Below are positions 2,352 to 52,323 of a stretch of DNA of 64,000 nucleotides, piece by piece; positions within the stretch are counted from its first letter, which is position 1, and every line of letters begins with the position of its first letter. The notes under the pieces were generated by a model. It worked only from the letters and a program-made list of their open reading frames with translations. It did not search any database and was not told the DNA's origin. This DNA comes from Escherichia coli (lineage in GTDB: Bacteria > Pseudomonadota > Gammaproteobacteria > Enterobacterales > Enterobacteriaceae). A program made the translations under genes and the position numbers. Location of the stretch: NCBI RefSeq assembly GCF_009931435.1, contig NZ_CP043414.1; one strand, given 5' to 3'.

Positions 2352-3140
2352 ATGCAAACGATTATCCGCGTCGAACAACTGAGCAAAACCTTCAATCAGC
2401 ATCAGGCGCTGCACGCGGTTGATCTGAACATTCATCACGGTGAAATGGTGGCTCTGCTTGGGCCGTCGGGTTCCGGCAAATCCACCCTTTTACGTCACTT
2501 AAGCGGCCTGATTGTCGGCGATAAAAAGCCAGAATGCCGCGTCGAACTGCTGGGCCGCACCGTCCAGCAAAATGGCCGCCTGGCCCGCGATATCCGCAAA
2601 AGCCGCGCCAACACCGGCTACATCTTCCAACAATTCAACCTGGTGAATCGCCTGAGCGTACTGGAGAACGTGCTGATTGGCGCGCTCGGCAGCACGCCGT
2701 TCTGGCGTACCTGTTTTAGCTGGTTCACCCGCGAGCAGAAACAGCGTGCGTTACAGGCACTGACTCGCGTTGGGATGGTGCACTTTGCCCATCAGCGCGT
2801 TTCCACGCTCTCCGGCGGCCAGCAGCAGCGTGTGGCGATAGCCCGTGCGCTGATGCAGCAGGCGAAGGTGATTCTGGCCGATGAACCCATCGCCTCGCTG
2901 GACCCGGAATCGGCCCGCATCGTGATGGATACCCTGCGCGACATCAACCAGAACGACGGCATCACCGTGGTGGTGACGCTGCATCAGGTGGATTACGCCC
3001 TGCGCTACTGCGAACGCATCGTCGCCCTGCGCCAGGGGCACGTCTTCTACGACGGCAGCAGCCAACAGTTTGATAACGAACGTTTTGACCATCTCTACCG
3101 CAGCATTAACCGCGTCGAAGAGAACGCGAAAGCTGCCTGA
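2352..3140 (+). CDS. phnC: Phosphonate ABC transporter ATP-binding protein, 262 aa
   Basis: ORF track; Walker [10 protein letters not shown] and ABC signature LSGGQQQR. Confidence 0.95.
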
Positions 3141-3164
3141 CATCCCCATCATTGAGGAAAACGA

Positions 3165-4181
3165 ATGAACGCTAAGATAATTGCCTCGCTGGCCTTCACC
3201 AGCATGTTCAGCCTCAGCACCCTGTTCAGCCCGGCACACGCCGAAGAGCAGGAAAAGGCGCTGAATTTCGGCATTATTTCAACGGAATCACAGCAAAACC
3301 TGAAACCGCAATGGACGCCTTTCCTGCAAGATATGGAGAAGAAACTGGGCGTAAAGGTCAACGCCTTCTTTGCTCCGGACTACGCGGGCATTATCCAGGG
3401 GATGCGCTTCAATAAAGTGGATATCGCCTGGTACGGCAATCTGTCGGCGATGGAAGCGGTGGATCGCGCCAACGGTCAGGTCTTCGCCCAGACGGTCGCG
3501 GCGGATGGATCGCCGGGTTACTGGAGCGTGTTGATCGTCAACAAAGACAGTCCGATCAACAACCTGAACGATCTGCTGGCGAAGCGTAAAGATCTCACCT
3601 TTGGCAATGGCGATCCTAACTCCACCTCTGGCTTCCTCGTCCCCGGCTACTACGTCTTCGCCAAAAACAATATCTCCGCCAGCGACTTCAAGCGCACCGT
3701 CAACGCCGGGCATGAAACCAACGCGCTGGCCGTCGCCAACAAGCAGGTGGATGTGGCGACCAACAACACCGAGAACCTCGACAAGCTGAAAACCTCCGCA
3801 CCGGAGAAGCTCAAAGAACTGAAGGTGATCTGGAAATCGCCGCTGATCCCAGGCGATCCGATCGTCTGGCGCAAAAATCTTTCCGAAACCACCAAAGACA
3901 AGATCTACGACTTCTTTATGAACTACGGCAAAACGCCGGAAGAGAAAGCGGTGCTGGAGCGCCTGGGCTGGGCCCCGTTCCGCGCCTCCAGCGACCTGCA
4001 ACTGGTGCCAATTCGCCAGCTCGCGCTGTTTAAAGAGATGCAGGGCGTGAAAGGCAATAAGGGACTGAATGAGCAGGACAAGCTGGCAAAAACCACCGCC
4101 ATTCAGGCGCAACTGGATGATTTGGACCGCCTGAACAACGCGTTAAGCGCAATGAGTTCGGTGAGTAAAGCGGTGCAGTAA
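3165..4181 (+). CDS. phnD: Periplasmic phosphonate-binding protein, 338 aa
   Basis: ORF track; signal-peptide-like N-terminus ending AHA; fits the PhnD family and operon position. Confidence 0.95.
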   Translation: MNAKIIASLAFTSMFSLSTLFSPAHAEEQEKALNFGIISTESQQNLKPQWTPFLQDMEKKLGVKVNAFFAPDYAGIIQGMRFNKVDIAWYGNLSAMEAVDRANGQVFAQTVAADGSPGYWSVLIVNKDSPINNLNDLLAKRKDLTFGNGDPNSTSGFLVPGYYVFAKNNISASDFKRTVNAGHETNALAVANKQVDVATNNTENLDKLKTSAPEKLKELKVIWKSPLIPGDPIVWRKNLSETTKDKIYDFFMNYGKTPEEKAVLERLGWAPFRASSDLQLVPIRQLALFKEMQGVKGNKGLNEQDKLAKTTAIQAQLDDLDRLNNALSAMSSVSKAVQ

Positions 4182-4195
4182 TGTGCTCGATCGGT

Positions 4196-4294
4196 CCCCT
4201 CTCCCTTGAGGGAGAGGGTTAGGGTGAGGGGGGAAATACGCACGCTGATGCCCTCACCCCGGCCCTCTCCTACAGGGAGAGGGAGAAAACATTA
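4196..4294. repeat. GC-rich inverted pair of boxC-like palindromic units in the phnD-phnE spacer
   Basis: CCCTCTCCC-TTGA-GGGAGAGGG-TTAGGGTGAGGGG followed by its near reverse complement GCCCTCACCCCGGCCCTCTCC-TACA-GGGAGAGGG. Confidence 0.7.
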
Positions 4295-4307
4295 AACGGA
4301 GCCAAAC

Positions 4308-5087
4308 ATGCAAACCATCACCATCGCCCCACCCAAGCGCAGCTGGTTCTCGATCTTCAGCTGGGCCGTTGTTCTCGCCGTACTGGTCGTCTCGTGGCAG
4401 GGCGCGGAAATGGCCCCGCTCACGCTGATTAAAGACGGCGGCAACATGGCGACGTTCGCCGCCGACTTCTTCCCGCCCGATTTCAGCCAGTGGCAGGATT
4501 ACCTCACCGAAATGGCCGTCACGCTGCAAATCGCCGTCTGGGGCACTGCGCTGGCAGTCGTTCTCTCCATCCCCTTCGGCCTGATGAGCGCCGAAAACCT
4601 GGTGCCGTGGTGGGTTTACCAGCCCGTTCGCCGCCTGATGGACGCCTGCCGCGCCATTAACGAGATGGTCTTCGCCATGCTGTTCGTGGTCGCCGTCGGT
4701 CTCGGTCCGTTCGCTGGCGTACTGGCGCTGTTTATCCACACCACCGGCGTGCTCTCCAAACTGCTTTCCGAAGCGGTAGAAGCAATTGAACCCGGCCCGG
4801 TGGAAGGTATTCGCGCCACTGGTGCCAACAAGCTCGAAGAGATCCTCTATGGCGTGCTGCCGCAGGTGATGCCGCTGCTGATCTCCTACTCCCTCTATCG
4901 CTTCGAATCCAACGTCCGTTCGGCCACCGTTGTTGGCATGGTCGGCGCTGGCGGGATCGGCGTCACGCTGTGGGAAGCGATTCGCGGTTTCCAGTTCCAG
5001 CAAACCTGCGCCCTGATGGTGCTGATTATCGTCACGGTCAGCCTGCTGGATTTCCTCTCTCAACGGTTGCGTAAGCACTTTATCTGA
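4308..5087 (+). CDS. phnE: Phosphonate ABC transporter permease, intact 259-aa frame
   Basis: Single uninterrupted ORF in the track (4308..5087); binding-protein-dependent permease features. Confidence 0.9.
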
Positions 5088-5107
5088 TAAGCGAGGCATT
5101 GATAGCT

Positions 5108-5833
5108 ATGCACTTGTCTACACATCCGACCAGCTACCCAACACGCTATCAGGAGATAGCCGCAAAACTTGAGCAGGAGCTTCGTCAACACTACCGCTGC
5201 GGCGACTATCTTCCCGCCGAGCATCAACTGGCGGCACGCTTTGAGGTGAATCGCCACACCCTGCGCCGCGCCATCGACCAACTGGTGGAAAAAGGCTGGG
5301 TACAGCGCCGTCAGGGCGTCGGCGTGCTGGTGCTGATGCGCCCGTTCGATTACCCGCTCAACGCCCAGGCGCGTTTTAGCCAGAACCTGCTGGATCAGGG
5401 TAGCCATCCCACCAGCGAAAAACTGCTGTCGGTGCTGCGCCCGGCCTCCGGCCACGTCGCTGACGCGCTGGGGATAACCGAGGGCGAGAACGTTATCCAC
5501 CTGCGCACCCTGCGTCGGGTCAACGGCGTCGCACTCTGTTTAATCGACCACTACTTTGCGGACCTCACTCTCTGGCCGACGCTGCAACGCTTCGACAGCG
5601 GCTCGCTGCACGATTTTTTGCACGAGCAAACGGGAATTGCGCTGCGCCGCAGCCAGACGCGGATCAGCGCCCGCCGCGCCCAGGCCAAAGAGTGCCAGCG
5701 TCTTGAAATTCCGAATATGTCGCCGCTGCTGTGCGTGCGCACCCTTAACCACCGTGACGGTGAAAGCAGCCCGGCGGAGTACTCCGTCAGCCTGACGCGC
5801 GCCGACATGATTGAATTCACCATGGAGCACTGA
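5108..5833 (+). CDS. phnF: GntR-family transcriptional regulator of the phn operon, 241 aa
   Basis: ORF track 5099..5833 starts at TTG; first ATG at 5108 gives MHLSTHPTSYPTRYQEIAAKLEQELR with a GntR-type HTH. Confidence 0.9.
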   Translation: MHLSTHPTSYPTRYQEIAAKLEQELRQHYRCGDYLPAEHQLAARFEVNRHTLRRAIDQLVEKGWVQRRQGVGVLVLMRPFDYPLNAQARFSQNLLDQGSHPTSEKLLSVLRPASGHVADALGITEGENVIHLRTLRRVNGVALCLIDHYFADLTLWPTLQRFDSGSLHDFLHEQTGIALRRSQTRISARRAQAKECQRLEIPNMSPLLCVRTLNHRDGESSPAEYSVSLTRADMIEFTMEH

Positions 5834-6286
5834 ATGCACGCAGATACCGCGACCCGCCAGCACTGGATGTCCGTGCTGGCGCACAGCCAACCGGCTGAAC
5901 TGGCTAACCGCCTTAAAGCGCTAAACATCACCGCCGACTATGACATGATCCGCGCCGCCGAAACCGGCCTGGTACAGATTCAGGCGCGAATGGGTGGCAC
6001 CGGCGAACGCTTTTTTGCTGGCGACGCTACGCTCACCCGCGCCGCTGTACGCCTTACTGACGGCACGCTCGGCTACAGCTGGGTGCTGGGGCGCGACAAA
6101 CAGCACGCCGAACGCTGCGCGCTGATTGACGCGCTGATGCAGCAATCTCGCCACTTTCAAAACTTATCAGAAACCCTTATTGCCCCGCTGGACGCTGACC
6201 GTATGGCACGCATTGCCGCACGCCAGGCCGAAGTGAACGCCAGTCGGGTCGACTTCTTTACGATGGTTCGCGGAGACAACGCATGA
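5834..6286 (+). CDS. phnG: C-P lyase core complex subunit PhnG, 150 aa
   Basis: ORF track; operon position; start immediately after the phnF stop. Confidence 0.9.
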
Positions 6287-6867
6287 CCCTGGAAACCGCT
6301 TTTATGCTTCCCGTGCAGGATGCCCAGCACAGTTTTCGTCGCCTGTTAAAGGCCATGAGCGAGCCGGGCGTGATTGTCGCCCTGCATCAACTCAAACGCG
6401 GCTGGCAGCCGCTGAATATCGCCACCACCAGCGTGCTGCTGACGCTGGCCGATAACGACACGCCGGTGTGGCTTTCTGCGCCATTAAGTAACGATATCGT
6501 CAGCCAGAGCCTGCGTTTTCATACCAACGCGCCGCTGGTCAATCAGCCGGAACAGGCGACCTTCGCAGTGACGGATGAGGCGATTGCCAGCGAGCAGCTC
6601 AACGCCCTTTCCATCGGCACCGCCGTTGCGCCGGAAGCCGGTGCGACGTTGATTTTACAGGTCACCAGCCTGAGCGGCGGACGCATGCTGCGCCTCACCG
6701 GCGCGGGTATTGCCGAAGAACGGATGATCGCCCCGCAACTGCCGGAGTGCATTCTGCACGAACTCACCGAGCGCCCGCACCCGTTCCCGCTCGGCATCGA
6801 CCTGATCCTGACCTGCGGCGAGCGCCTGCTGGCTATCCCGCGAACCACTCATGTGGAGGTGTGCTGA
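6283..6867 (+). CDS. phnH: C-P lyase core complex subunit PhnH, 194 aa
   Basis: ORF track; ATGA overlap with the phnG stop. Confidence 0.9.
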
Positions 6868-7931
6868 TGTACGTTGCCGTGAAAGGGGGCGAAAAGGCGA
6901 TCGACGCCGCCCACGCCCTGCAAGAGAGCCGACGCCGGGGCGATACTGATTTGCCTGAACTGAGCGTCGCCCAGATTGAACAGCAGCTTAATCTCGCGGT
7001 GGATCGCGTGATGACCGAAGGCGGCATTGCCGACCGTGAACTGGCGGCACTAGCGCTGAAACAGGCCAGCGGCGATAACGTTGAAGCGATTTTCCTGTTG
7101 CGCGCCTACCGCACGACGCTGGCAAAGCTGGCGGTGAGCGAGCCGCTCGACACCACCGAGATGCGGCTCGAACGCCGTATTTCGGCGGTTTATAAAGACA
7201 TTCCCGGCGGCCAGTTGCTTGGCCCGACCTACGACTACACCCATCGCCTGCTCGATTTCACCCTGCTGGCGAATGGCGAAGCGCCGACGCTGACCACCGC
7301 CGACAGCGAGCAAGCCCCATCGCCGCACGTTTTCAGCCTGCTGGCGCGTCAGGGGCTGGCGAAGTTTGAAGAGGATAGCGGCGCACAGCCGGACGACATC
7401 ACCCGCACGCCGCCGGTTTACCCCTGCTCACGTTCTTCCCGTTTGCAGCAGCTCATGCGCGGAGACGAAGGCTATTTGCTGGCGCTGGCCTACTCCACCC
7501 AGCGTGGTTACGGACGCAATCACCCGTTCGCAGGCGAAATCCGCAGTGGCTATATCGACGTGTCTATTGTGCCGGAAGAGCTGGGATTTGCGGTGAACAT
7601 CGGCGAACTGCTGATGACCGAGTGTGAAATGGTCAACGGTTTTATCGACCCGCCGGATGAGCCGCCGCACTTCACGCGCGGCTACGGGCTGGTGTTCGGC
7701 ATGAGCGAGCGCAAAGCGATGGCAATGGCGCTGGTTGACCGCGCTCTACAAGCCCCGGAGTACGGCGAGCACGCGACAGGCCCGGCGCAGGATGAAGAGT
7801 TCGTGCTGGCGCATGCCGACAACGTCGAAGCCGCAGGCTTTGTCTCGCACCTCAAACTCCCGCACTACGTCGATTTCCAGGCCGAACTGGAGCTACTCAA
7901 ACGTCTGCAACAGGAGCAGAACCATGGCTAA
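6867..7931 (+). CDS. phnI: C-P lyase core complex subunit PhnI, 354 aa
   Basis: ORF track frame 6747..7931; I place the start at ATG 6867 ([18 protein letters not shown]), overlapping the phnH stop by one base (TGATG). Confidence 0.9.
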   Translation: MYVAVKGGEKAIDAAHALQESRRRGDTDLPELSVAQIEQQLNLAVDRVMTEGGIADRELAALALKQASGDNVEAIFLLRAYRTTLAKLAVSEPLDTTEMRLERRISAVYKDIPGGQLLGPTYDYTHRLLDFTLLANGEAPTLTTADSEQAPSPHVFSLLARQGLAKFEEDSGAQPDDITRTPPVYPCSRSSRLQQLMRGDEGYLLALAYSTQRGYGRNHPFAGEIRSGYIDVSIVPEELGFAVNIGELLMTECEMVNGFIDPPDEPPHFTRGYGLVFGMSERKAMAMALVDRALQAPEYGEHATGPAQDEEFVLAHADNVEAAGFVSHLKLPHYVDFQAELELLKRLQQEQNHG

Positions 7932-8769
7932 TCTGAGCGGCTACAACTTTGCCTACCTCGACGAGCAGACCAAACGTATGATCCGCCGCGCCATCTTAAA
8001 AGCGGTGGCGATCCCCGGTTATCAGGTGCCGTTTGGCGGGCGCGAGATGCCGATGCCATACGGCTGGGGAACTGGTGGTATCCAGCTTACCGCCAGCGTG
8101 ATTGGCGAAAGCGACGTGTTGAAGGTGATTGACCAGGGCGCGGATGACACCACCAACGCCGTATCAATTCGCAACTTTTTCAAGCGCGTGACCGGGGTAA
8201 ACACCACTGAACGTACGGATGATGCGACGCTTATCCAGACGCGCCACCGCATCCCCGAAACGCCGCTGACCGAAGATCAGATCATTATTTTCCAGGTGCC
8301 GATCCCCGAACCGCTGCGCTTTATCGAGCCGCGCGAAACGGAGACCCGCACTATGCACGCGCTGGAGGAGTACGGCGTGATGCAGGTGAAACTGTATGAA
8401 GATATCGCCCGCTTCGGTCATATCGCCACCACCTACGCCTATCCGGTGAAGGTGAACGGACGCTACGTAATGGACCCATCGCCGATCCCGAAATTTGATA
8501 ACCCGAAAATGGACATGATGCCCGCCCTGCAACTGTTTGGCGCGGGGCGCGAGAAGCGTATTTATGCGGTGCCGCCGTTTACCCGCGTGGAAAGCCTCGA
8601 TTTCGACGATCATCCGTTCACCGTTCAGCAGTGGGATGAACCCTGCGCCATCTGCGGATCGACCCACAGCTATCTCGATGAAGTGGTGCTGGATGACGCC
8701 GGAAACCGCATGTTTGTCTGTTCCGATACCGATTATTGCCGCCAACAGAGCGAGGCGAAAAGCCAATGA
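7924..8769 (+). CDS. phnJ: C-P bond-cleaving enzyme PhnJ, 281 aa
   Basis: ORF track frame 7735..8769; start at ATG 7924 (MANLSGYNFAYLDEQTKRMIRRAILKAV); C-terminal cysteine cluster CAICGS..C..C. Confidence 0.9.
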   Translation: MANLSGYNFAYLDEQTKRMIRRAILKAVAIPGYQVPFGGREMPMPYGWGTGGIQLTASVIGESDVLKVIDQGADDTTNAVSIRNFFKRVTGVNTTERTDDATLIQTRHRIPETPLTEDQIIIFQVPIPEPLRFIEPRETETRTMHALEEYGVMQVKLYEDIARFGHIATTYAYPVKVNGRYVMDPSPIPKFDNPKMDMMPALQLFGAGREKRIYAVPPFTRVESLDFDDHPFTVQQWDEPCAICGSTHSYLDEVVLDDAGNRMFVCSDTDYCRQQSEAKSQ

Positions 8770-9524
8770 ATCAACCGTTACTTTCGGTCAATAACCTGAC
8801 CCACCTCTACGCACCGGGCAAAGGCTTCAGCGACGTTTCTTTTGATTTATGGCCGGGGGAAGTGCTGGGCATCGTCGGGGAATCCGGTTCCGGGAAGACC
8901 ACGCTGCTGAAATCAATCTCCGCGCGCCTGACGCCGCAGCAGGGGGAGATTCGCTATGAAAACCGTTCCCTCTATGGCATGAGCGAAGCCGACCGCCGCC
9001 GTTTACTGCGCACCGAATGGGGCGTGGTACATCAGCATCCGCTCGACGGCCTGCGTCGCCAGGTCTCGGCAGGCGGCAATATCGGCGAACGGCTGATGGC
9101 GACCGGGGCGCGTCATTACGGCGATATTCGCGCCACCGCGCAGAAGTGGCTGGAAGAGGTGGAGATTCCCGCCAACCGGATCGACGACCTGCCGACCACT
9201 TTTTCCGGCGGTATGCAGCAGCGTTTGCAGATTGCCCGCAACCTGGTGACGCATCCGAAGCTGGTGTTTATGGATGAACCGACCGGCGGGCTGGATGTAT
9301 CAGTGCAAGCGCGCCTGCTCGATCTGCTGCGCGGTCTGGTGGTGGAGCTGAACCTGGCGGTGGTGATTGTCACCCACGATCTGGGCGTCGCCCGCCTGCT
9401 GGCGGACCGTTTGCTGGTGATGAAGCAAGGGCAAGTGGTGGAGAGTGGGTTAACCGACCGCGTGCTCGACGACCCGCATCACCCGTATACCCAGCTGCTG
9501 GTGTCATCGGTTTTGCAGAATTGA
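8766..9524 (+). CDS. phnK: ABC-type ATPase PhnK, 252 aa
   Basis: ORF track frame 8736..9524; start at ATG 8766 (MNQPLLSVNNLTHLY); Walker A GESGSGKTT. Confidence 0.9.
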   Translation: MNQPLLSVNNLTHLYAPGKGFSDVSFDLWPGEVLGIVGESGSGKTTLLKSISARLTPQQGEIRYENRSLYGMSEADRRRLLRTEWGVVHQHPLDGLRRQVSAGGNIGERLMATGARHYGDIRATAQKWLEEVEIPANRIDDLPTTFSGGMQQRLQIARNLVTHPKLVFMDEPTGGLDVSVQARLLDLLRGLVVELNLAVVIVTHDLGVARLLADRLLVMKQGQVVESGLTDRVLDDPHHPYTQLLVSSVLQN

Positions 9525-9529
9525 GCCTT

Positions 9530-9690
9530 GCTTGTGTCGGGTGGCGCTGCGCTTACCCGACCTACGGTACATGTAGGCCGGATAAGGCGTAGCCGCCATC
9601 CGGCTTATCAGGCCTACAAAACCATCGTAATACATTGATATTGATTCATTTGTAGGCCGGATAAGGCGCAGCCGCCATCCGGCAAAAACA
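9530..9690. repeat. REP/BIME cluster inside the phn operon, between phnK and phnL
   Basis: GTAGGCCGGATAAGGCG(T/C)AGCCGCCATCCGGC units in inverted orientation. Confidence 0.8.
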
Positions 9691-9703
9691 CGAAGAGGCC
9701 AAA

Positions 9704-10384
9704 ATGATCCGCGTCGAAAACGTCAGTAAAACCTTCATCCTGCACCAACAAAACGGCGTGCGCCTGCCCGTCTTACAACGCGCCTCGCTCACCGTCAACG
9801 CGGGCGAATGCGTGGTGCTCCACGGCCATTCCGGCAGCGGCAAATCAACCCTGCTGCGCTCGCTGTACGCTAACTATCTGCCCGACGAAGGGCAAATTCA
9901 GATCAAACATGGTGACGAGTGGGTAGACCTGGTCACCGCGCCAGCGCGCAAAGTGGTGGAAATCCGCAAAACCACCGTCGGCTGGGTGAGCCAGTTTCTG
10001 CGGGTCATCCCGCGTATTTCGGCGCTGGAAGTGGTAATGCAGCCGCTGCTCGATACCGGCGTTCCGCGTGAAGCCTGCGCCGCTAAAGCCGCCCGTCTGC
10101 TCACCCGCCTGAACGTGCCGGAACGTCTGTGGCACCTGGCGCCATCGACCTTCTCCGGCGGCGAACAGCAGCGCGTCAACATCGCGCGCGGCTTTATCGT
10201 CGATTACCCCATTCTGCTGCTCGACGAACCTACTGCCTCGCTGGACGCCAAAAACAGCGCCGCGGTGGTGGAACTGATCCGCGAAGCTAAAACCCGCGGC
10301 GCAGCCATCGTCGGCATCTTCCACGACGAAGCCGTACGCAATGACGTCGCCGACCGCCTCCACCCAATGGGAGCCTCTGCATGA
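9704..10384 (+). CDS. phnL: ABC-type ATPase PhnL, 226 aa
   Basis: ORF track; Walker [10 protein letters not shown]. Confidence 0.9.
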
Positions 10385-11517
10385 TTATCAATAACGTCAA
10401 ACTGGTGCTGGAAAACGAAGTGGTACACGGTTCGCTGGAGGTGCAGGACGGCGAAATTCGCGCCTTTGCCGAAAGCCAGAGCCGCCTGCCAGAAGCGATG
10501 GACGGCGAAGGTGGCTGGCTGCTGCCGGGGCTGATTGAGCTGCATACCGACAACCTCGATAAATTCTTCACTCCGCGCCCGAAAGTGGACTGGCCTGCCC
10601 ACTCAGCGATGAGCAGCCACGACGCGCTGATGGTGGCGAGCGGCATCACCACGGTGCTGGATGCCGTGGCGATTGGCGACGTGCGCGACGGCGGCGATCG
10701 GCTGGAGAATCTGGAGAAGATGATCAACGCCATCGAAGAGACGCAGAAACGCGGGGTCAACCGCGCCGAGCACCGTCTGCACCTGCGCTGTGAACTGCCG
10801 CATCACACTACGCTGCCGCTGTTTGAAAAACTGGTGCAGCGCGAGCCGGTCACGCTGGTGTCGCTGATGGACCACTCGCCGGGCCAGCGCCAGTTCGCCA
10901 ATCGCGAGAAGTATCGCGAATATTACCAGGGCAAATACTCGCTCACCGATGCGCAGATGCAGCAGTACGAAGAGGAACAACTGGCGCTTGCCGCACGCTG
11001 GTCGCAGCCGAATCGCGAAACCATCGCCGCAATATGCCGCGCGCGACAAATTGCCCTCGCCAGCCACGATGATGCTACGCACGAGCACGTTGCCGAATCC
11101 CACCAGCTTGGCAGCGTAATCGCCGAATTTCCCACCACGTTCGAAGCGGCGGAAGCTTCGCGCAAGCATGGCATGAATGTATTGATGGGCGCGCCGAATA
11201 TTGTGCGCGGCGGTTCGCACTCCGGCAACGTGGCGGCAAGCGAACTGGCACAGCTTGGCCTGCTGGATATCCTCTCTTCCGACTACTACCCCGCCAGCCT
11301 GCTCGATGCGGCATTTCGCGTCGCCGATGACGAGAGCAACCGCTTTACGCTGCCGCAGGCGGTGAAGCTGGTGACTAAAAATCCGGCGCAGGCGCTTAAT
11401 CTTCAGGATCGCGGGGTGATTGGCGAGGGCAAACGCGCCGACCTGGTGCTGGCGCATCGCAAGGGCAACCACATTCATATCGATCACGTCTGGCGTCAGG
11501 GTAAAAGGGTGTTCTGA
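10381..11517 (+). CDS. phnM: Amidohydrolase-family phosphonate metabolism enzyme PhnM, 378 aa
   Basis: ORF track; ATGA overlap with phnL; metal-dependent hydrolase family. Confidence 0.9.
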
Positions 11518-12074
11518 TGACGGGAAAACTGATTTGGTTAATGGGGGCCTCTGGCTCCGGAAAAGACAGTCTGTTGACGGAACTCCGCCAGCGGGAACAA
11601 ACTCAGCTACTGGTAGCGCATCGCTACATCACGCGCGCCGCCAGCGCCGGAAGTGAAAACCATATCGCCCTGAGCGAGCAGGAGTTTTTTACCCGCGCGG
11701 GGCAGAACCTTCTGGCCTTAAGCTGGCACGCCAACGGCCTGTATTATGGCATCGGCGTCGAGATTGACCTCTGGCTACACGCCGGATTCGACGTGGTGGT
11801 CAACGGCTCACGCGCGCATTTGCCGCAGGCGCGGGCGCGCTATCAATCGGCTCTGCTGCCTATCTGTTTACAGGTGTCACCGGAGATCCTGCGCCAGCGT
11901 CTGGAAAACCGTGGTCGTGAAAATGCCAGTGAAATTAACGCCCGGCTGGCGCGCGCTGCCCGCTATACTCCTCAGGATTGTCTTACGCTCAATAATGACG
12001 GCAGCCTGCGCCAGTCGGTCGACAAGCTGCTGACGCTGATTCATCAGAAGGAGAAACACCATGCCTGCTTGTGA
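11517..12074 (+). CDS. phnN: Ribose 1,5-bisphosphate phosphokinase PhnN, 185 aa
   Basis: ORF track; P-loop [14 protein letters not shown] overlap with phnM. Confidence 0.9.
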
Positions 12075-12495
12075 GCTTCGTCCGGCCACGCAGTACGACA
12101 CCGACGCGGTTTACGCGCTGATTTGTGAGCTAAAACAGGCGGAGTTTGACCACCATGCGTTTCGCGTGGGCTTTAACGCCAACCTGCGCGACCCGAACAT
12201 GCGCTACCATCTGGCGCTGCTGGAAGGCGAAGTTGTCGGCATGATCGGCCTGCATTTGCAGTTTCATCTGCATCATGTCAACTGGATCGGCGAAATTCAG
12301 GAACTGGTGGTGATGCCGCAGGCGCGCGGTCTGAACGTCGGCAGTAAATTACTGGCATGGGCCGAAGAAGAAGCCCGCCAGGCCGGGGCCGAAATGACCG
12401 AGCTTTCCACCAACGTCAAGCGCCACGACGCGCACCGTTTCTATCTGCGCGAAGGCTACGAGCAGAGCCACTTCCGCTTCACCAAGGCGCTGTAA
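12061..12495 (+). CDS. phnO: Aminoalkylphosphonate N-acetyltransferase PhnO (GNAT family), 144 aa
   Basis: ORF track; 14-nt overlap with the phnN 3' end. Confidence 0.9.
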
Positions 12496-12496
12496 C

Positions 12497-13255
12497 ATGA
12501 GCCTGACCCTCACACTTACTGGCACTGGCGGCGCACAGGGTGTTCCCGCATGGGGCTGTGAGTGCGCGGCCTGCGCCAGAGCGCGGCGCTCACCGCAGTA
12601 TCGCCGCCAGCCATGCAGCGGCGTCGTGAAGTTTAACGACGCGATCACCCTGATCGACGCCGGACTGCACGATCTCGCCGATCGCTGGTCGCCCGGATCG
12701 TTCCAGCAGTTTTTGCTGACGCACTACCATATGGATCACGTGCAGGGGCTGTTTCCGCTGCGCTGGGGCGTGGGCGATTCGATCCCGGTCTACGGCCCGC
12801 CGGATGAACAGGGCTGCGACGATCTGTTTAAACATCCGGGCCTGCTTGATTTCAGCCACACGGTGGAGCCATTTGTGATGTTTGATTTGCAGGGATTACA
12901 GGTCACGCCGCTGCCGCTCAACCATTCGAAACTCACTTTCGGCTATCTACTGGAAACGGCACATAGCCGGGTGGCGTGGCTGTCTGACACCGCAGGCCTG
13001 CCGGAAAAAACGGTGAAATTTTTATGCAATAATCAGCCACAGGTAATGGTGATTGATTGCTGCCACCCACCGCGCGCGAATTCGCCACGCAATCACTGTG
13101 ATTTAAACACCGTGCTGGCGCTGAATGAAGTTATCCGCTCGCCGTGCGTGGTTCTGACACATATCAGCCATCAGTTTGATGCGTGGCTGATGGAGAACAT
13201 ACTGCCGTCAGGGTTTGAGGCGGGGTTTGATGGGATGGAGATTGGGGTGGAGTGA
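12497..13255 (+). CDS. phnP: Metallo-beta-lactamase-fold phosphodiesterase PhnP, 252 aa
   Basis: ORF track; HxHxDH motif (HYHMDH). Confidence 0.9.
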
Positions 13256-13289: not shown

Positions 13290-13598
13290 TCACCGCCCAT
13301 ACTCATCTTCCATTCTCCGCTCTTCATCTTCTAGCTGCCGACGCTCCTGATCCAGCTGGCGCTGGCGATCGTCCAGCTGCCTGCGGCGATCTTCATATTG
13401 TCTGCGCCGATCGTCGTTCACTTCACGCTGCCAGCCGTCGTCGCGCCAATCTTCATAGTCTCGCCCACGGTCAGGGTTATAAGCATCGTTAATCGCCTGC
13501 TGAATATTGCCAATGGTGTCGTCGATAATATCGGCCTGGGCCGGAACGGTGGACAGCGTGAGCAGGGTGAATAAAAGAAATAGCGGAAAACGTTTCAT
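13290..13598 (-). CDS. yjdP: Small secreted protein YjdP, 102 aa, with a highly charged R/D/E/Q-rich C-terminal half
   Basis: ORF track; signal-peptide-like N-terminus MKRFPLFLLFTLLTLSTVPAQA, then low-complexity RRRQ/DDRQR repeats. Confidence 0.7.
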   Translation of the reverse strand: MKRFPLFLLFTLLTLSTVPAQADIIDDTIGNIQQAINDAYNPDRGRDYEDWRDDGWQREVNDDRRRQYEDRRRQLDDRQRQLDQERRQLEDEERRMEDEYGR

Positions 13599-13666
13599 TA
13601 GCCAACCTCAAAAAGAAACTCTATCCACATTAGTCATTACTCATCCATGCAAGTAGTGGATGAATC

Positions 13667-13984
13667 TCAATTTTTCCGCTGCTCTATTGCCGTAATCGCC
13701 TCCACGCGTTGTTGATGACGACCGCCTTCGTACTGCGCGCCCAGCCACGCATCCACAATCATTTTTGCCAGTTCGAGGCCAACCACTCGTGAACCAAAAG
13801 CCAGTGCAACTTCACTGGCGTAATGCGGATAATCAGTGCGCTCTGACGACCTGGTTTCTTTATCAATCCCCTCACTCATTGACCATGAATAAAAGGCTGG
13901 CACAGCAACGCAGAATCCTGCGGTGCCAGCGACATGACCGCCCATTGCTCCGGTACGTTTTTTAATAAGAAACACCGGTTGCAT
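13667..13984 (-). pseudogene. rpiB: rpiB-derived remnant: chimeric 105-codon ORF whose C-terminal part matches ribose-5-phosphate isomerase B but which lacks the central third of the protein
   Basis: Translation contains SSERTDYPHYASEVALA joined directly to FGSRVVGLELAKMIVDAWLGAQYEGGRHQQRVEAITAIEQRKN (RpiB-like), preceded by ~40 residues that do not resemble the RpiB N-terminus as I recall it. Confidence 0.6.
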
Positions 13985-14236
13985 TGATTAATTGTGCTCA
14001 GTATTTGCCGAAGTACAATATATATAATAAATATATAAAACACCTCATATTATTTACAGAGATAATAAATTCGCGTACTTTTCCCTCTTCAGCACAAATG
14101 CCTAATAAAATGGCTCGTTCCGCTCACACTTCCACTTATTAAAATCGCAATTTCCCAATTATGATAACGCCAGCTTTAAATGACGTATTTTGCATGGATT
14201 ACATATTTACGACACAAATGATAAATGGAGATTTAT

Positions 14237-16222
14237 ATGAATAACTCTCGGTTATTCCGTTTGAGCAGGATTGTTATTGCGTTAACTGCCGCCAGCGGCA
14301 TGATGGTAAATACCGCTCACGCAACAGATGAAGCGAAAGCCGCCACTCAATATACCCAACAGGTTAATCAGAATTACGCCAAATCATTACCGTTTAGCGA
14401 TCGTCAGGATTTTGACGATGCCCAGCGCGGATTTATCGCCCCGCTGCTGGATGAAGGTATTCTGCGCGATGCGAATGGCAAAGTTTACTACCGCGCGAAT
14501 GATTACAAATTTGATATTAATGCCGCTGCGCCGGAAACCGTAAACCCCAGCCTGTGGCGTCAGTCGCAGATCAACGGCATTTCTGGTCTGTTCAAAGTCA
14601 CCGATAAAATGTATCAGGTGCGCGGCCAGGATATCTCTAACATTACATTCGTTGAGGGCGAGAAAGGCATTATTGTTATCGACCCACTGGTGACGCCGCC
14701 TGCCGCAAAAGCCGCACTTGACCTTTACTTCCAGCATCGTCCGCAAAAACCGATTGTTGCTGTTATTTACACCCACAGCCACGCCGACCATTATGGCGGT
14801 GTGAAAGGCATTATCTCTGAAGCGGATGTTAAATCTGGCAAAGTGCAGGTGATCGCTCCGGCAGGCTTTATGGACGAAGCCATCAGCGAAAACGTGCTGG
14901 CGGGTAACATCATGAGCCGCCGTGCGCTCTACTCTTACGGTCTGTTACTGCCGCACAACGCGCAAGGCAACGTGGGCAACGGCCTGGGCGTGACGCTGGC
15001 AACGGGCGACCCGAGCATTATTGCGCCAACCAAAACGATTGTCAGAACTGGCGAGAAGATGATTATCGACGGCCTGGAGTTTGACTTCCTGATGACTCCG
15101 GGTAGCGAAGCGCCAGCCGAAATGCACTTCTATATTCCGGCCCTGAAAGCCCTGTGTACCGCCGAAAACGCCACGCATACCCTGCACAACTTCTACACCC
15201 TGCGCGGCGCGAAAACCCGCGATACCAGCAAGTGGACAGAGTATCTGAACGAAACGCTGGATATGTGGGGTAACGACGCGGAAGTACTGTTTATGCCGCA
15301 CACCTGGCCGGTCTGGGGCAATAAGCATATCAATGATTATATTGGTAAATATCGCGATACTATCAAATACATTCACGACCAGACCCTGCACCTGGCGAAC
15401 CAGGGTTACACCATGAATGAAATTGGCGACATGATTAAGCTGCCACCTGCGCTTGCCAATAACTGGGCCAGCCGCGGCTATTACGGTTCTGTTAGCCACA
15501 ACGCCCGTGCAGTGTATAACTTCTATCTCGGCTATTATGACGGCAATCCAGCTAACCTACATCCGTACGGTCAGGTGGAGATGGGCAAACGTTACGTGAA
15601 AGCGCTGGGCGGTTCCGCCCGTGTCATCAACCTGGCGCAAGAAGCGAACAAGCAAGGGGATTACCGCTGGTCAGCAGAGTTGCTGAAACAGGTGATTGCC
15701 GCCAATCCGGGTGACCAGGTGGCGAAGAATCTGCAAGCGAATAACTTTGAACAGCTGGGCTATCAGGCCGAGTCCGCCACCTGGCGCGGTTTCTACCTGA
15801 CCGGCGCAAAAGAGCTGCGCGAAGGGGTGCATAAGTTCAGCCACGGCACCACGGGTTCTCCGGACACCCTTCGCGGGATGTCGGTCGAAATGCTGTTCGA
15901 CTTTATGGCCGTTCGCCTCGATAGCGCGAAAGCCGCAGGTAAGAATATCAGCCTGAACTTCAATATGAGCAACGGCGATAACCTCAACCTGACGCTGAAC
16001 GATAGCGTGCTTAACTACCGTAAAACGCTGCAACCTGAAGCCAACGCCTCTTTCTACATCAGCCGTGAAGATCTTCACGCCGTGCTGACCGGACAAGCCA
16101 AAATGGCGGATCTGGTAAAAGCGAAGAAAGCCAAAATTATTGGCAATGGCGCGAAACTGGAAGAAATTATTGCCTGTCTGGATAATTTCGATTTGTGGGT
16201 GAATATCGTAACCCCAAATTAA
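14237..16222 (+). CDS. yjcS: Metallo-beta-lactamase-fold alkyl/aryl-sulfatase family protein YjcS, 661 aa
   Basis: ORF track 14225..16222; start placed at ATG 14237 ([21 protein letters not shown], signal peptide); HSHADH motif. Confidence 0.85.
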
Positions 16223-21467: not shown

Positions 21468-23615
21468 ATGAAAAAAGTCGTCACGGTTTGCCCCTATTGC
21501 GCATCAGGTTGCAAAATCAACCTGGTCGTCGATAACGGCAAAATCGTCCGGGCGGAGGCAGCGCAGGGCAAAACCAACCAGGGTACCCTGTGTCTGAAGG
21601 GGTATTATGGCTGGGATTTCATTAACGATACCCAGATCCTGACCCCGCGCCTGAAAACCCCCATGATTCGTCGCCAGCGTGGCGGCAAACTCGAACCTGT
21701 TTCCTGGGATGAGGCACTGAATTACGTTGCCGAGCGCCTGAGCGCCATCAAAGAGAAGTACGGTCCGGATGCCATCCAGACGACCGGCTCCTCGCGTGGT
21801 ACGGGTAACGAAACCAACTATGTAATGCAAAAATTTGCGCGCGCCGTTATTGGTACCAATAACGTTGATTGCTGCGCTCGTGTCTGACACGGCCCATCGG
21901 TTGCAGGTCTGCACCAATCGGTCGGTAATGGCGCAATGAGCAATGCTATTAACGAAATTGATAATACCGATTTAGTGTTCGTTTTCGGGTACAACCCGGC
22001 GGATTCCCACCCTATCGTGGCGAATCACGTAATTAACGCTAAACGTAACGGGGCGAAAATTATCGTCTGCGATCCGCGCAAAATTGAAACCGCGCGCATT
22101 GCTGACATGCACATTGCACTGAAAAACGGCTCGAATATCGCGCTGTTGAATGCAATGGGCCATGTCATTATTGAAGAAAATCTGTACGACAAAGCGTTCG
22201 TCGCTTCCCGTACAGAAGGCTTTGAAGAGTATCGTAAAATCGTTGAAGGCTACACGCCAGAGTCGGTTGAAGATATCACCGGCGTCAGCGCCAGTGAGAT
22301 TCGTCAGGCGGCGCGGATGTATGCCCAGGCGAAAAGCGCCGCCATCCTGTGGGGCATGGGTGTAACCCAGTTCTACCAGGGCGTGGAAACCGTGCGTTCT
22401 CTGACCAGCCTCGCGATGCTGACCGGTAACCTCGGTAAGCCGCATGCGGGTGTAAACCCGGTTCGTGGGCAAAACAACGTGCAGGGTGCCTGCGATATGG
22501 GCGCGCTGCCAGATACTTACCCTGGCTACCAGTACGTGAAAGATCCGGCTAACCGCGAGAAATTCGCCAAAGCCTGGGGTGTAGAGAGTCTGCCAGCACA
22601 TACCGGTTATCGCATCAGCGAGCTACCGCATCGCGCAGCGCATGGTGAAGTGCGTGCCGCGTACATTATGGGCGAAGATCCGCTACAAACTGACGCGGAG
22701 CTGTCGGCAGTACGTAAAGCCTTTGAAGATCTGGAACTGGTCATCGTTCAGGACATCTTTATGACCAAAACCGCGTCGGCGGCGGATGTCATTTTACCGT
22801 CAACGTCGTGGGGCGAGCATGAAGGCGTGTTTACTGCGGCTGACCGTGGCTTCCAGCGTTTCTTCAAAGCAGTTGAACCGAAATGGGATCTGAAAACGGA
22901 CTGGCAGATTATCAGTGAAATCGCCACCCGTATGGGTTATCCGATGCACTACAACAACACCCAGGAGATCTGGGATGAGTTGCGTCATCTGTGCCCGGAT
23001 TTCTACGGTGCGACTTACGAGAAAATGGGCGAACTGGGCTTCATTCAGTGGCCTTGTCGCGATACTTCAGATGCCGATCAGGGGACTTCTTATCTGTTTA
23101 AAGAGAAGTTTGATACTCCGAACGGTCTGGCGCAGTTCTTCACCTGCGACTGGGTAGCGCCAATCGACAAACTCACCGACGAGTATCCGATGGTACTGTC
23201 AACGGTGCGTGAAGTCGGTCACTACTCTTGCCGTTCGATGACCGGTAACTGTGCGGCACTGGCGGCGCTGGCTGATGAACCTGGCTACGCACAAATCAAT
23301 ACCGAAGACGCCAAACGTCTGGGTATTGAAGATGAGGCATTGGTTTGGGTGCACTCGCGTAAAGGCAAAATTATCACCCGTGCGCAGGTCAGCGATCGTC
23401 CGAACAAAGGGGCGATTTACATGACCTACCAGTGGTGGATTGGTGCCTGTAACGAGCTGGTTACCGAAAACTTAAGCCCGATTACGAAAACGCCGGAATA
23501 CAAATACTGCGCCGTGCGCGTCGAGCCGATCGCCGATCAGCGCGCCGCCGAGCAGTACGTGATTGACGAGTACAACAAGTTGAAAACTCGCCTGCGCGAA
23601 GCGGCACTGGCGTAA
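21468..23615 (+). CDS. fdhF: Formate dehydrogenase H (selenocysteine-containing molybdoenzyme), 715 aa including Sec at the in-frame TGA 21885-21887
   Basis: ORF track entries 21468..21887 and 21936..23615 are in the same frame, separated only by TGA and a short stretch; N-terminal CxxCxxGC motif; readthrough translation is continuous. Confidence 0.9.
21885..21930 (+). other. UGA-Sec codon plus SECIS hairpin (SelB-binding element) of fdhF
   Basis: TGA immediately followed by CACGGCCCATCGGTTGCAGGTCTGCACCAATCGGTCGGTAATGGCG, which can form the stem-loop expected for a bacterial SECIS. Confidence 0.8.
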
Positions 23616-34865: not shown

Positions 34866-34990
34866 TTACCGGATGCGATCCGGGCAACAAGTCGGAAACG
34901 ATTTGTAGGCCTGATAAGACGCGACAGCGTCGCATCAGGCATTGATTGCCGGATGCGGCGTATAACGCCTTATCCAGCCTACATTCGGCG
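34866..34990. repeat. REP/BIME cluster between acs and yjcH
   Basis: CCGGATGCGATCCGGGC and TGTAGGCCTGATAAGACGCG...CGTCGCATCAGGC units. Confidence 0.75.
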
Positions 34991-48885: not shown

Positions 48886-49914
48886 ATGAGCCTGGAAAGC
48901 GAAGAAAAAGACCAAACAGAAAAAAAGCTGATCACCATGCGTGACGTGGCGAATGCTGCCGGGGTGAGTATTTCTACCGTTTCGCGTATCCTGGATGAAA
49001 GATTACCGCCATCTAAAAGCGCTTCTGCCGAAAAAGTACGCCAGGTCGCACGCGAATTGGGCTATCGTCGGGATTATGTTGCCTCCAGTCTCCGTCGCGG
49101 CGGCACCGGGACACTTGGTGTATTAGTTCCACGCCTGACTGATGCAGTTACTGCAATGTTGTTTGAAGAAATCGCTAAAGCAGCGTCGCATCGTGGTTAC
49201 TTCGCAGTGGTCGCGACTTGTGGAGACGATCCCCAGCAAGAGCGAGAATCTGTAGAATCACTTCTCGACAGGCGGGTCGACGGCTTGATTATGTCAACCT
49301 GTCGCCTCGGCGATCCCCTACCGCAAACTTTGCGTGAAAGGGATATTCCCCATGTGCTCGCCCTGCGTACTGATGGTGTTAGCCCATCATCCATCGGCGA
49401 TGATGAACTGGGTGGTTACCTTGCTACTCGCCATCTTATTGATTTAGGACATAAAAACATCGGTTTGATAGGTGGCCCGGATTTTGCCTCAAATGCGCTT
49501 AATCGCCGTAAAGGTTTTGAAAAGGCAATGCGCGAAGCCGGACTAACTATACAGCCGCAATGGTGCTGTTCATCAGACTTTAACATCCAGTCGGGAGAAG
49601 AAGCAGGGATGAAACTCCTCAGAACGACTCCTGCTCCAACCGCTATTTTTGCGGTAAATGACGAAATAGCGATTGGTGTGGTTGCTGCCGCTCACCATTT
49701 GGGGATAACAATCGGCCAAGAGTTGTCGTTAGTGGGTTATAACGACATTCCTCTGGTCAGCCGACTTCCTGTGGCGCTCACTTCCGTAAGAACGCCGCTA
49801 GAGCATATCGCCAGTAATGCTGTGGACATGTTGATTAATGCCGACAGTGGCCGCTCTTTGCGTACAACCATACCGACTTTAATACCAAGAAAATCAACGA
49901 GTTCACCCAAGTAA
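48886..49914 (+). CDS. LacI-family transcriptional regulator (accessory locus gene 3), 342 aa
   Basis: ORF track; N-terminal HTH ITMRDVANAAGVSISTVSRIL; periplasmic-binding-protein-like effector domain; GGGAG ribosome-binding site 6 nt upstream. Confidence 0.85.
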   Translation: MSLESEEKDQTEKKLITMRDVANAAGVSISTVSRILDERLPPSKSASAEKVRQVARELGYRRDYVASSLRRGGTGTLGVLVPRLTDAVTAMLFEEIAKAASHRGYFAVVATCGDDPQQERESVESLLDRRVDGLIMSTCRLGDPLPQTLRERDIPHVLALRTDGVSPSSIGDDELGGYLATRHLIDLGHKNIGLIGGPDFASNALNRRKGFEKAMREAGLTIQPQWCCSSDFNIQSGEEAGMKLLRTTPAPTAIFAVNDEIAIGVVAAAHHLGITIGQELSLVGYNDIPLVSRLPVALTSVRTPLEHIASNAVDMLINADSGRSLRTTIPTLIPRKSTSSPK

Positions 49915-49923
49915 AGCCTGTCT

Positions 49924-49962
49924 TTCATTTGCTGCAAAACCCGGGGTTTTGCAGCAAATGAA
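49924..49962. terminator. Near-perfect 19-bp palindrome 10 bp downstream of the LacI-family gene stop (terminator-like hairpin, no clear T-tract)
   Basis: TTCATTTGCTGCAAAACCC-g-GGGTTTTGCAGCAAATGAA. Confidence 0.45.
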
Positions 49963-50067
49963 GAACATTAAAATTCTTATATTCCTTCCCTGATTTTGTG
50001 ATCCCTGCTGCATTTTTCAACAACTGTTGATTGACAACCTCATTCATCAGGTTCAAATTCAATCTTG

Positions 50068-50093
50068 TGAAAACGATTGCAAGAACGTTTTCA
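50068..50093. promoter_or_regulatory. Second copy of candidate operator TGAAAACG-N10-CGTTTTCA, 58 bp upstream of the DapA-family gene
   Basis: Exact 8-bp inverted repeats with a 10-bp spacer, identical in arms and spacing to 48567-48592. Confidence 0.5.
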
Positions 50094-50150
50094 TTTCGTT
50101 TCTTGCATTGTCCACATAATAAAAAAGACTAAATTATTAAGGAGATAGTC

Positions 50151-51080
50151 ATGATCAATATAGATCTCAGAGGTTTGACCCCGGCACCGGTTACCCCTTT
50201 CAATCGTGATGGTAGTATTGATTTTGATGCTATCCAGCGTCTGGGAAGCTGGCTGGGTAGTATTGACGGCGTTAAAGGGTTAGTTGTACTTGGTCATGCT
50301 GGTGAAGGTACTTTCCTGACACAAGATGAACAGGCCGCTGTGATCCGTGCTTTCGTAAAATCCGTAGATGGCAAGCTGCCTATCATTGCCGGTATCACCG
50401 GTGAAGGGACTGACGTCGCTGCTAAAGAAGCCAAACGTGCCGTGGAAGCTGGTGCTTCAGCAGGCCTGTTATATCCTTCTCATGGATGGTTGCGTTTCGG
50501 CTACCAGGACGGCGCACCACAAGATCGCTACCGCGTTGTCTATGAAGAAAGCGGCCTGCCCTTGATCCTGTTTCAGTATCCTGATGTGACTAAAGCAACC
50601 TATAATCTGCAAACACTGCTGGATATTTCCGCACAACCCGGTGTTTTTGCTATGAAAAATGGTGTACGCAATATGCGTCGTTGGGATACAGAGATCCCGG
50701 TTATCCGCCGCGAGCGTCCGGAATTACAGATCCTCAGTTGCCATGATGAATATCTGGTACACACTGCTTTTGACGTAGATGGTTTCCTTGTCGGCTATGG
50801 CAATATTGCGCCAGAACCGCTCATCGAGATGATCAAAGCAGGTAAAGCTGGCGATTATAAAAAAGCACGCGCGATACATGACCGTCTGCTGCCAGTAACG
50901 AAGTGCGTATATCATCGCGGTTCCCATATGGAAGGAACCGTCGCCCTGAAACACGCGCTGGTTGCTCGCGGTATTCTCGAACATGCTACTGTTCGTTCAC
51001 CGCTATTACCGCTGGAGCATGGTGCCGAAGAAGAAATTCATGCTGCTATGCGTGCAGCTGACCTGCCGCGCGTTAAATAA
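50151..51080 (+). CDS. DapA/NAL-family class I aldolase or dehydratase (dihydrodipicolinate synthase-like) (accessory locus gene 4), 309 aa
   Basis: ORF track; strong AAGGAG ribosome-binding site; family-typical Tyr (LFQYPDVT) and Schiff-base Lys context (FAMKNG). Confidence 0.75.
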   Translation: MINIDLRGLTPAPVTPFNRDGSIDFDAIQRLGSWLGSIDGVKGLVVLGHAGEGTFLTQDEQAAVIRAFVKSVDGKLPIIAGITGEGTDVAAKEAKRAVEAGASAGLLYPSHGWLRFGYQDGAPQDRYRVVYEESGLPLILFQYPDVTKATYNLQTLLDISAQPGVFAMKNGVRNMRRWDTEIPVIRRERPELQILSCHDEYLVHTAFDVDGFLVGYGNIAPEPLIEMIKAGKAGDYKKARAIHDRLLPVTKCVYHRGSHMEGTVALKHALVARGILEHATVRSPLLPLEHGAEEEIHAAMRAADLPRVK

Positions 51081-51351
51081 CTCCGGCAACAGAAAAGAAA
51101 GCAGTATTCTAAATCACTACTCCTGATGGTTATTGCTTTCTTTCACTTAATGCCACATTAACGACGACAGCCACCTTTACATACAATCATAAGGTGGCTC
51201 ATTCTCTTCATCAGCCTATTGTCGCGCCGGGCTATTTTGAATAACTCAGATGTAATAATGATGAGATTGTTAGAATCCAGGCCATAGTACAACGTCTCAG
51301 AAGCCAGAAGGTAAGTAATGCCCTGATCATGGCATGAATTGAAGGAACATC

Positions 51352-52233
51352 ATGAAACTGCTCAGTTTTTCTGTAGATAACGAAGAAAAGTATGGTGCCA
51401 TCGTATCCGATGGAATTATTGACTTGCATAAATTATTTCCCGAACTTCCCGACCTGAAATCATACGTTGCCAGTCAACATTCATTAGACATCGCTTTGTT
51501 TGCAGGTAAAAAAGCCGATTACCATCAGGGCGAAGTGACTTTTCTGCCCGTAATTACTCGACCAAATAAAATCATCTGCGCAGGTATGAACTACCGGGAA
51601 AAATGTGCAGAATTTAATGAAAAAGGTGGCGATCCGACGCTATTTATCCGTTTTGCTGATACTCAGACGGGCCACCGTTGTGGGTTAATAAAACCGACCC
51701 TGAGTAATGAATTTGATTATGAAGGCGAACTGGCGGTAATTATAGGTCGCCAGGGTTCTCACATTCCTGCTGATGAAGCATTTAACTATATTGCCGGGTA
51801 TAGCTGTTATATGGATGGTTCCGTTCGTGACTGGCAGCACAGCTGGTTTACTGCCGGTAAAAATTGGCCTGCAACAGGTGGATTCGGGCCATGGATGGTT
51901 ACGCCAGATGAAATTCCTGACCCTCAAAATCTGAATATTATCACCCGTCTTAACGGCAAGGAAGTGCAGAATGATAATACACATAGCATGCTGCACTCTA
52001 TTAAGGATTTGATTGCCTATATCAGTACTTTCACCACCTTATCGCCCGGTGACGTGATATTAACAGGCTCTCCGGGTGGGGTCGGTAAAAAACGCTCTCC
52101 ACCGCTCTTCTTGTGGCCTGGTGATATTGTTGAAGTTGAGATTTCAAGAATTGGTTGCCTGATAAATCACATTATAAGCGACAACGAAGAGTATCCGGTC
52201 ACTTTACAATCAGAACTCGATAACGCCTGCTGA
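51352..52233 (+). CDS. Fumarylacetoacetate hydrolase (FAH)-family enzyme (hydratase/hydrolase/decarboxylase type) (accessory locus gene 5), 293 aa
   Basis: ORF track; FAH-fold motifs DYEGELAVIIG and ITRLNGKEVQ...GDVILTGSPGG. Confidence 0.75.
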   Translation: MKLLSFSVDNEEKYGAIVSDGIIDLHKLFPELPDLKSYVASQHSLDIALFAGKKADYHQGEVTFLPVITRPNKIICAGMNYREKCAEFNEKGGDPTLFIRFADTQTGHRCGLIKPTLSNEFDYEGELAVIIGRQGSHIPADEAFNYIAGYSCYMDGSVRDWQHSWFTAGKNWPATGGFGPWMVTPDEIPDPQNLNIITRLNGKEVQNDNTHSMLHSIKDLIAYISTFTTLSPGDVILTGSPGGVGKKRSPPLFLWPGDIVEVEISRIGCLINHIISDNEEYPVTLQSELDNAC

Positions 52234-52323
52234 TTATAAAGTTAACGAAAAATTCGGATAGATAGCCTGGCACTTTAGAAATTAACATTAAGTGGTAGGC
52301 AATCCTTTCAAGGAGTATGCGTG

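Follow-up and report, generated by a model that had tools for sequence, protein, structure and literature searches.

As listed below, a complete phnCDEFGHIJKLMNOP operon lies on the plus strand of the window, the 64,000-nucleotide stretch of Escherichia coli DNA analysed in this study. All 14 genes from phnC to phnP are present and ordered as in annotated E. coli genomes, and none of them has a frameshift or an early stop. The phnE gene stands beside phnC and phnD, whose products both pass the cutoffs of their equivalog families. The features needed in the following are these.

2246-2252 (CTGTCAT) and 2275-2296 (CTGTTAGTCACTTTTAGTTAAC), plus strand: Pho-box-like words upstream of phnC, found in the sequence
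2352-3140, plus strand: phnC, ATPase; NF007438 at 595.9 bits (above the cutoff); 95.1% amino acid identity to K-12, equal length
3165-4181, plus strand: phnD, periplasmic binding protein; TIGR03431 at 376.4 bits (above the cutoff); 99.1% amino acid identity to K-12, equal length
4195-4286, plus strand: GC-rich palindromic element of about 90 nucleotides in the phnD-phnE spacer, located by alignment
4298-4301, plus strand: GGAG, ribosome-binding site of phnE, 6 bases 5′ of the ATG; kept in K-12, E. coli B and strain Z0117EC0005
4308-5087, plus strand: phnE, permease of the PhnCDE phosphonate ABC importer; ATG start, 259 codons and TGA
4713-4720 and 4721-4728, plus strand: two octamers, GCTGGCGT and ACTGGCGC, forming the 8-bp repeat site; located by alignment to K-12
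4721, plus strand: synonymous G-to-A change (Val, GTG to GTA) at the first base of the second unit, found by alignment
4803-4862, plus strand: EAA-type cytoplasmic loop of PhnE (codons 166-185), found by a regular-expression motif search
5108-5833, plus strand: phnF, regulator; start, stop, no internal stop, K-12 length
5834-13255, plus strand: phnGHIJKLMNOP, C-P lyase pathway; starts, stops, no internal stops, K-12 lengths

The translation of phnE runs without an internal stop to the TGA codon. Its product scores 311.4 bits against the NCBIfam equivalog TIGR01097 (PhnE), whose cutoff is 216.7, and the match runs nearly end to end (protein residues 15-258 on model positions 7-251 of 252). Thus, the sequence-only reading, which had been made from the letters of the window, was right to describe 4308-5087 as a single continuous ORF of 259 codons. 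PF00528 (BPD_transp_1) is matched at 91.8 bits by residues 88-258. The EAA loop of ABC permeases touches the ATPase and couples the permease to it. With both the PF00528 domain and the EAA-type loop found, the product belongs to the inner-membrane components of binding-protein-dependent transport. An identical protein is encoded on 757 contigs in public collections, where it is named PhnE and assigned to E. coli or to 'MULTISPECIES Enterobacteriaceae', and RefSeq places phnE at matching coordinates in the closest genome (locus L005, CDS 4308..5087). The window phnE is a known gene in its common, intact form. No Rfam match was found within or beside phnE.

The length of the ORF alone is weak evidence, because the opposite strand has an even longer ORF of 281 codons (4254-5099). 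Could this be the real gene? Its length is the point in its favor, but it has no Pfam match, while the plus strand matches both PhnE and BPD_transp_1. Moreover, phnE is called on the plus strand in every annotated E. coli genome examined, and no conserved homologues of the antisense protein were found. GC-rich genes commonly carry long antisense ORFs. It is thus extremely improbable that the antisense ORF is the gene, and it was rejected as a candidate.

In a four-way alignment, the window phnE was compared with those of K-12 MG1655, of E. coli B and of Z0117EC0005, the E. coli genome closest to the window. The sole indel is the 8 bp that K-12 has in excess, at gene position 406, and the window and E. 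coli B sequences align without a gap. Thus, the 8-bp insertion of K-12 is absent from the window phnE, as the sequence-only reading had supposed, and it had overlooked no frameshift. The octamer, which it had been unable to pinpoint and for which it proposed an alignment to K-12, is GCTGGCGT. The repeat site reads CGTTC GCTGGCGT GCTGGCGT GCTGGCGC TG in K-12, which has three units, and CGTTC GCTGGCGT GCTGGCGC TG in E. coli B, which has two. In the window it reads CGTTC GCTGGCGT ACTGGCGC TG; there are two units, the second of which is imperfect, as counted in an assembled sequence, where collapse of a repeat is possible. The window phnE is thus distinct from the K-12-type cryptic allele with its three tandem GCTGGCGT units and +8 frameshift. 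The location agrees with a report on a K-12 revertant which lacks 5′-GCTGGCGT at ORF positions 407-414 and in which the deletion restores PhnCDE function (PMC6469041). The K-12 frameshift has likewise been ascribed to three instead of two copies of the octamer (PMC7566553).

Tandem Repeats Finder reported a perfect 8-bp array of 2.9 copies in the K-12 phnE (locus L004, 4380-4402). In the window phnE, neither this program nor a seed-6 repeat search found a period-8 array, and what Tandem Repeats Finder did report there is an unrelated 12-bp row of 2.1 copies at 4858-4882. The repeat site of the window was thus pinpointed by the alignment to K-12 only, not by the repeat finders, and the window phnE lacks the perfect slippable tandem tract by which a phase-variable locus is recognized. 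Two stretches had been guessed to hold the switch in the sequence-only reading. One of them (4715-4740) falls on the site at 4713-4728, while the other (4930-4945) has no indel; the latter was rejected as a second switch, the alignment showing only a synonymous GCT/GCA/GCG polymorphism. GCTGGCG words were also rejected as a switch signal: this word is generic and over-represented, and the window contains 83 copies versus about 15 expected.

The window phnE owes its open frame to the two octamers, not the three of K-12, at 4713-4728. The first 140 residues of the K-12 product are normal; from residue 141 on, its sequence departs from that of PhnE, and it ends after 189 codons. The distal membrane segments are absent from it, as is the EAA loop, both being encoded downstream of the repeat site. 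The third octamer shifts the frame at codon 141 and so yields the 189-residue product; devoid of its C-terminal membrane helices as well as of the EAA loop, this product would not allow the transporter to assemble. The window allele, on the other hand, encodes the full permease of 259 residues.

Is the intact form common in E. coli? A phnE gene was found in 5,394 of 5,426 complete E. coli genomes. A 77-nt probe for the three-unit site of K-12 matched 1,015 records at an identity of at least 99%. With an 85-nt three-unit probe, 1,001 records were matched ungapped and 3,389 with an 8-bp gap, which corresponds to two units. In an evenly spaced sample of full-gene matches, phnE is 788 bp long in 6 of 39 cases and 780 bp long in the rest. 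In summary, the two-unit form is found in about 81% of the 5,394 genomes bearing phnE and the frameshift in about one in five. These proportions agree with a report of a functional phnE in most strains (PMC6469041). The intact phnE is thus the majority state and not a notable exception. K-12 does carry a frameshifted, three-unit phnE, as was stated in the sequence-only reading, but the frameshift is not specific to K-12; it occurs in about 1,000 complete genomes, including those of farm-animal isolates. A Korean chicken isolate and a Vietnamese pig isolate (loci L020 and L021) have a 788-bp phnE annotated as 'frameshifted', and each of these alleles differs from that of K-12 at one of 788 positions. 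A record labelled MG1655 (NZ_CP032679.1, hit H146) has a two-unit version of the K-12 haplotype, which is consistent with a laboratory revertant. All in all, the observation on phnE was confirmed and its interpretation is supported, with corrections on the site and on the rarity of the intact form. By itself, the finding is of little consequence, as E. coli commonly has an intact phnE and databases already list the identical protein.

The phnE gene of E. coli B (WP_001193500.1; locus L002, 1001-1780) resembles that of the window in having 780 bp, 259 codons and two octamers at the same position, and the phnD-phnE-phnF context is the same. The two proteins are identical at 257 of 259 residues without gaps, the window protein having the changes L16I and L17F, and the genes differ at 30 nucleotides. 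At the position of 4721, E. coli B has G where the window has A, so that it retains an exact 7-nt repeat (GCTGGCG T GCTGGCG). I take E. coli B to be a functional, naturally Phn+ reference strain. K-12 MG1655 has the same gene at the same position in the same operon, with 94.5% nucleotide identity to the window phnE, but its three octamers make it a 788-bp 'frameshifted' pseudogene in a cryptic phn operon.

The repeat site with A at 4721, hereafter the A variant, is shared by Z0117EC0005 and 2020CK-00188, the closest complete genomes, and by Pseudocitrobacter vendiensis. A 77-mer of the A variant was found in 394-399 E. coli records among the 5,426 complete genomes. Z0117EC0005 and 2020CK-00188 also share with the window the palindromic spacer, the operon and a downstream region without the als genes. 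Their phnE genes differ from that of the window at 7-17 nucleotides (99.1% identity for Z0117EC0005), while their wider region is only about 97.4-97.7% identical, with the differences in patches. P. vendiensis CPO20170097T (locus L013), which belongs to another genus, has a phnE of 259 codons. Its phnE-phnF sequence is 98.0% identical to that of the window, while its phnC-phnD sequence is only 91.7% and its upstream flank 88% identical. A 60-mer of phnC that is private to the window (2496-2555) has an exact match only in P. vendiensis among 100,044 species-representative genomes. These comparisons of sequences point to an exchange of phn alleles between genera. The P. vendiensis comparison covers 2352-5898 of the window and 7661-11780 of L013. 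The cluster of PhnE proteins at 90% identity includes proteins whose names assign them to Pseudocitrobacter faecalis and to Salmonella enterica subsp. indica.

The spacers of the operon also vary. The GC-rich palindromic element in the phnD-phnE spacer of the window has a REP-like element as its counterpart in K-12 and E. coli B, while P. vendiensis is devoid of the inner 65 bp, which a AGGGAGAGGG word flanks on either side. The predicted RNA fold of 4182-4307, which is the phnD-phnE spacer of the window, has an energy of -67.9 kcal/mol (z = -6.24). The palindromic element may have a stabilising or an attenuating effect on the mRNA in this spacer. The phnK-phnL spacer (9525-9703) is 179 bp long in the window versus 110 bp in K-12. 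It consists mostly of 21-mers that are missing from the 12 E. coli loci compared (private run 9508-9736), and BLAST alignments to other genomes are interrupted there.

One reading that was considered takes the window phnE for the ON state of a slipped-strand switch that can reverse, in which a third unit would be gained often and the population would include Phn- cells. The window site is homologous to the K-12 switch, and Iqbal et al. are said to have found in 2004 that the unit is re-inserted once selection is removed. K-12 drops one unit at high frequency through replication slippage (PMC4759930, PMC6469041), and the two-unit form of the one MG1655-labelled RefSeq record is in line with such a switch. 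However, the window has only two units, of which the second is imperfect, its exact direct repeat is 6 nt long, and there is no Tandem Repeats Finder array. None of the 399 A-variant records has three units. A three-unit version of the A variant was found in 0 of the 5,426 genomes, the best match (96.5%) being a K-12-type sequence. In addition, the sampled three-unit alleles amount to about one haplotype, with 1,015 records corresponding to the K-12 77-mer and the two farm isolates lying a single nucleotide from K-12, and this fits inheritance better than repeated switching. As arguments against switching, these observations are suggestive only, since related genomes are not independent of one another. 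A frequently reversing switch in the source strain of the window is thus unlikely.

Another reading assigns a role to the A variant itself. The G-to-A change at 4721 leaves an exact direct repeat of 6 nt (CTGGCG) in place of one of 7 nt (GCTGGCG), and it is conceivable, though I put it forward only tentatively, that this synonymous change breaks the repeat and locks phnE ON in the A-variant allele family. The lack of three-unit A-variant records would suit an allele that gains a unit less readily. However, the comparison of A-variant with three-unit alleles is not one between independent events, because the latter seem to represent a single haplotype passed on by descent. If phnE is indeed locked ON in this way, the phnE switch would be confined to the K-12-like haplotype, and phnE would represent a lineage-specific and largely inherited loss-of-function polymorphism, not a general contingency locus. 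For those who use phnE in studies of phase variation, these results have a modest value: the frameshift allele is widespread in nature, it belongs to one haplotype, and none was found on the A variant.

The favored account is that of an ordinary gene in a complete operon. The rest of the phn operon is intact, as the sequence-only reading had expected; all 14 genes lack internal stops, and 13 of them have the K-12 length. In the 13 genes compared with K-12 (phnE was set against E. coli B), the amino acid identity is 94.5-99.3%. The nucleotide identity to K-12 across the phn genes is 92-97%, which makes them unusually polymorphic. In the 146 nt upstream of phnC, 142 positions match K-12. A Pho-box-like word is hit by one of the four substitutions, a variant that the closest E. 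coli genome shares. Judging from the PhoB consensus, the words at 2246-2252 and 2275-2296 are putative Pho boxes. PhnE, PhnC and PhnD are intact, the 14 genes have K-12 lengths (phnE that of E. coli B), and the upstream region is nearly that of K-12; therefore, a functional pathway is predicted. Phosphate starvation would cause PhoB-dependent transcription from the phnC promoter, and PhnCDE would then import phosphonates for cleavage through the C-P lyase pathway. PhoB/PhoR and other factors are encoded outside the 64-kb window. I consider it very probable that the window has a normal in-frame phnE in a complete phnCDEFGHIJKLMNOP operon and that phosphonate import and C-P lyase work; the window phnE is expected to be expressed and active in transport.

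A few observations were counted against this account, namely the L16I and L17F changes relative to the PhnE of E. coli B and the 12 residues at which PhnC differs from K-12 PhnC. It was also asked whether the ORF is intact while the system is silent or defective, owing to a missense change or a fault in regulation, either in phnE itself or in another part of the operon. The divergence of the phn genes from K-12, the four substitutions in the promoter region, with one of them in a Pho-box-like word, and the reading of the phenotype from sequence would leave room for such a defect. In contrast, the proteins remain close to those of K-12 and their lengths are unchanged. PhnE and PhnC are both products of common natural alleles; proteins identical to them recur in hundreds of assemblies, as purifying selection predicts, and the promoter variant is identical in the closest E. 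coli genome. A silent or defective system is thus very unlikely, and the account of a working operon is retained. Accepting it, the source strain is predicted to use phosphonates such as methylphosphonate and 2-aminoethylphosphonate. Following the findings of PMC6469041, it is also predicted to import phosphate via PhnCDE without the need for a reversion event.

The wider surroundings of the operon were also compared. The window is a segment of an E. coli-like chromosome and runs from crfC/yjdM through phn, yjcS, mdtNOP and fdhF on to uvrA and dnaB. The E. coli contigs found by their exact PhnE or PhnC protein are 95-97.7% identical to the window. Over 25 kb at either end of the window, the best identity among the 5,426 complete E. 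coli genomes is 98.0%, and no match of at least 99% was found among them; the lineage is not closely represented in this set. Relative to the closest genome, the window has 0-32 differences per 500 bp, distributed in patches. An artificial, uniform divergence of 2% was considered and rejected, as the patchiness fits a natural recombination mosaic.

Downstream of phnP, the als operon is missing at 13290-16222, and the closest E. coli genomes share this arrangement. The minus-strand yjdP (13290-13598) is followed by a truncated rpiB (13667-13984; 105 amino acids versus 149 in K-12) and then directly by yjcS (14225-16222). Farther downstream, between yjcB and ssb, an accessory block at about 45600-53600 encodes a carbohydrate porin, an MFS transporter, a LacI-family regulator and a C4-dicarboxylate transporter, together with enzymes of the DHDPS and fumarylacetoacetate hydrolase families. 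The part of the window from 39001 to 64000 is matched in one continuous place by only 12 of the 5,426 genomes. Elsewhere in the window, Rfam matched naRNA4 (CssrE, REP-derived) twice, at 1574-1650 on the plus strand and at 34908-34979 on the minus strand. It also matched the small RNA sraL at 42233-42373 on the plus strand and the fdhF SECIS element at 21880-21934, likewise on the plus strand, just 5′ of an ORF at 21936-23615.
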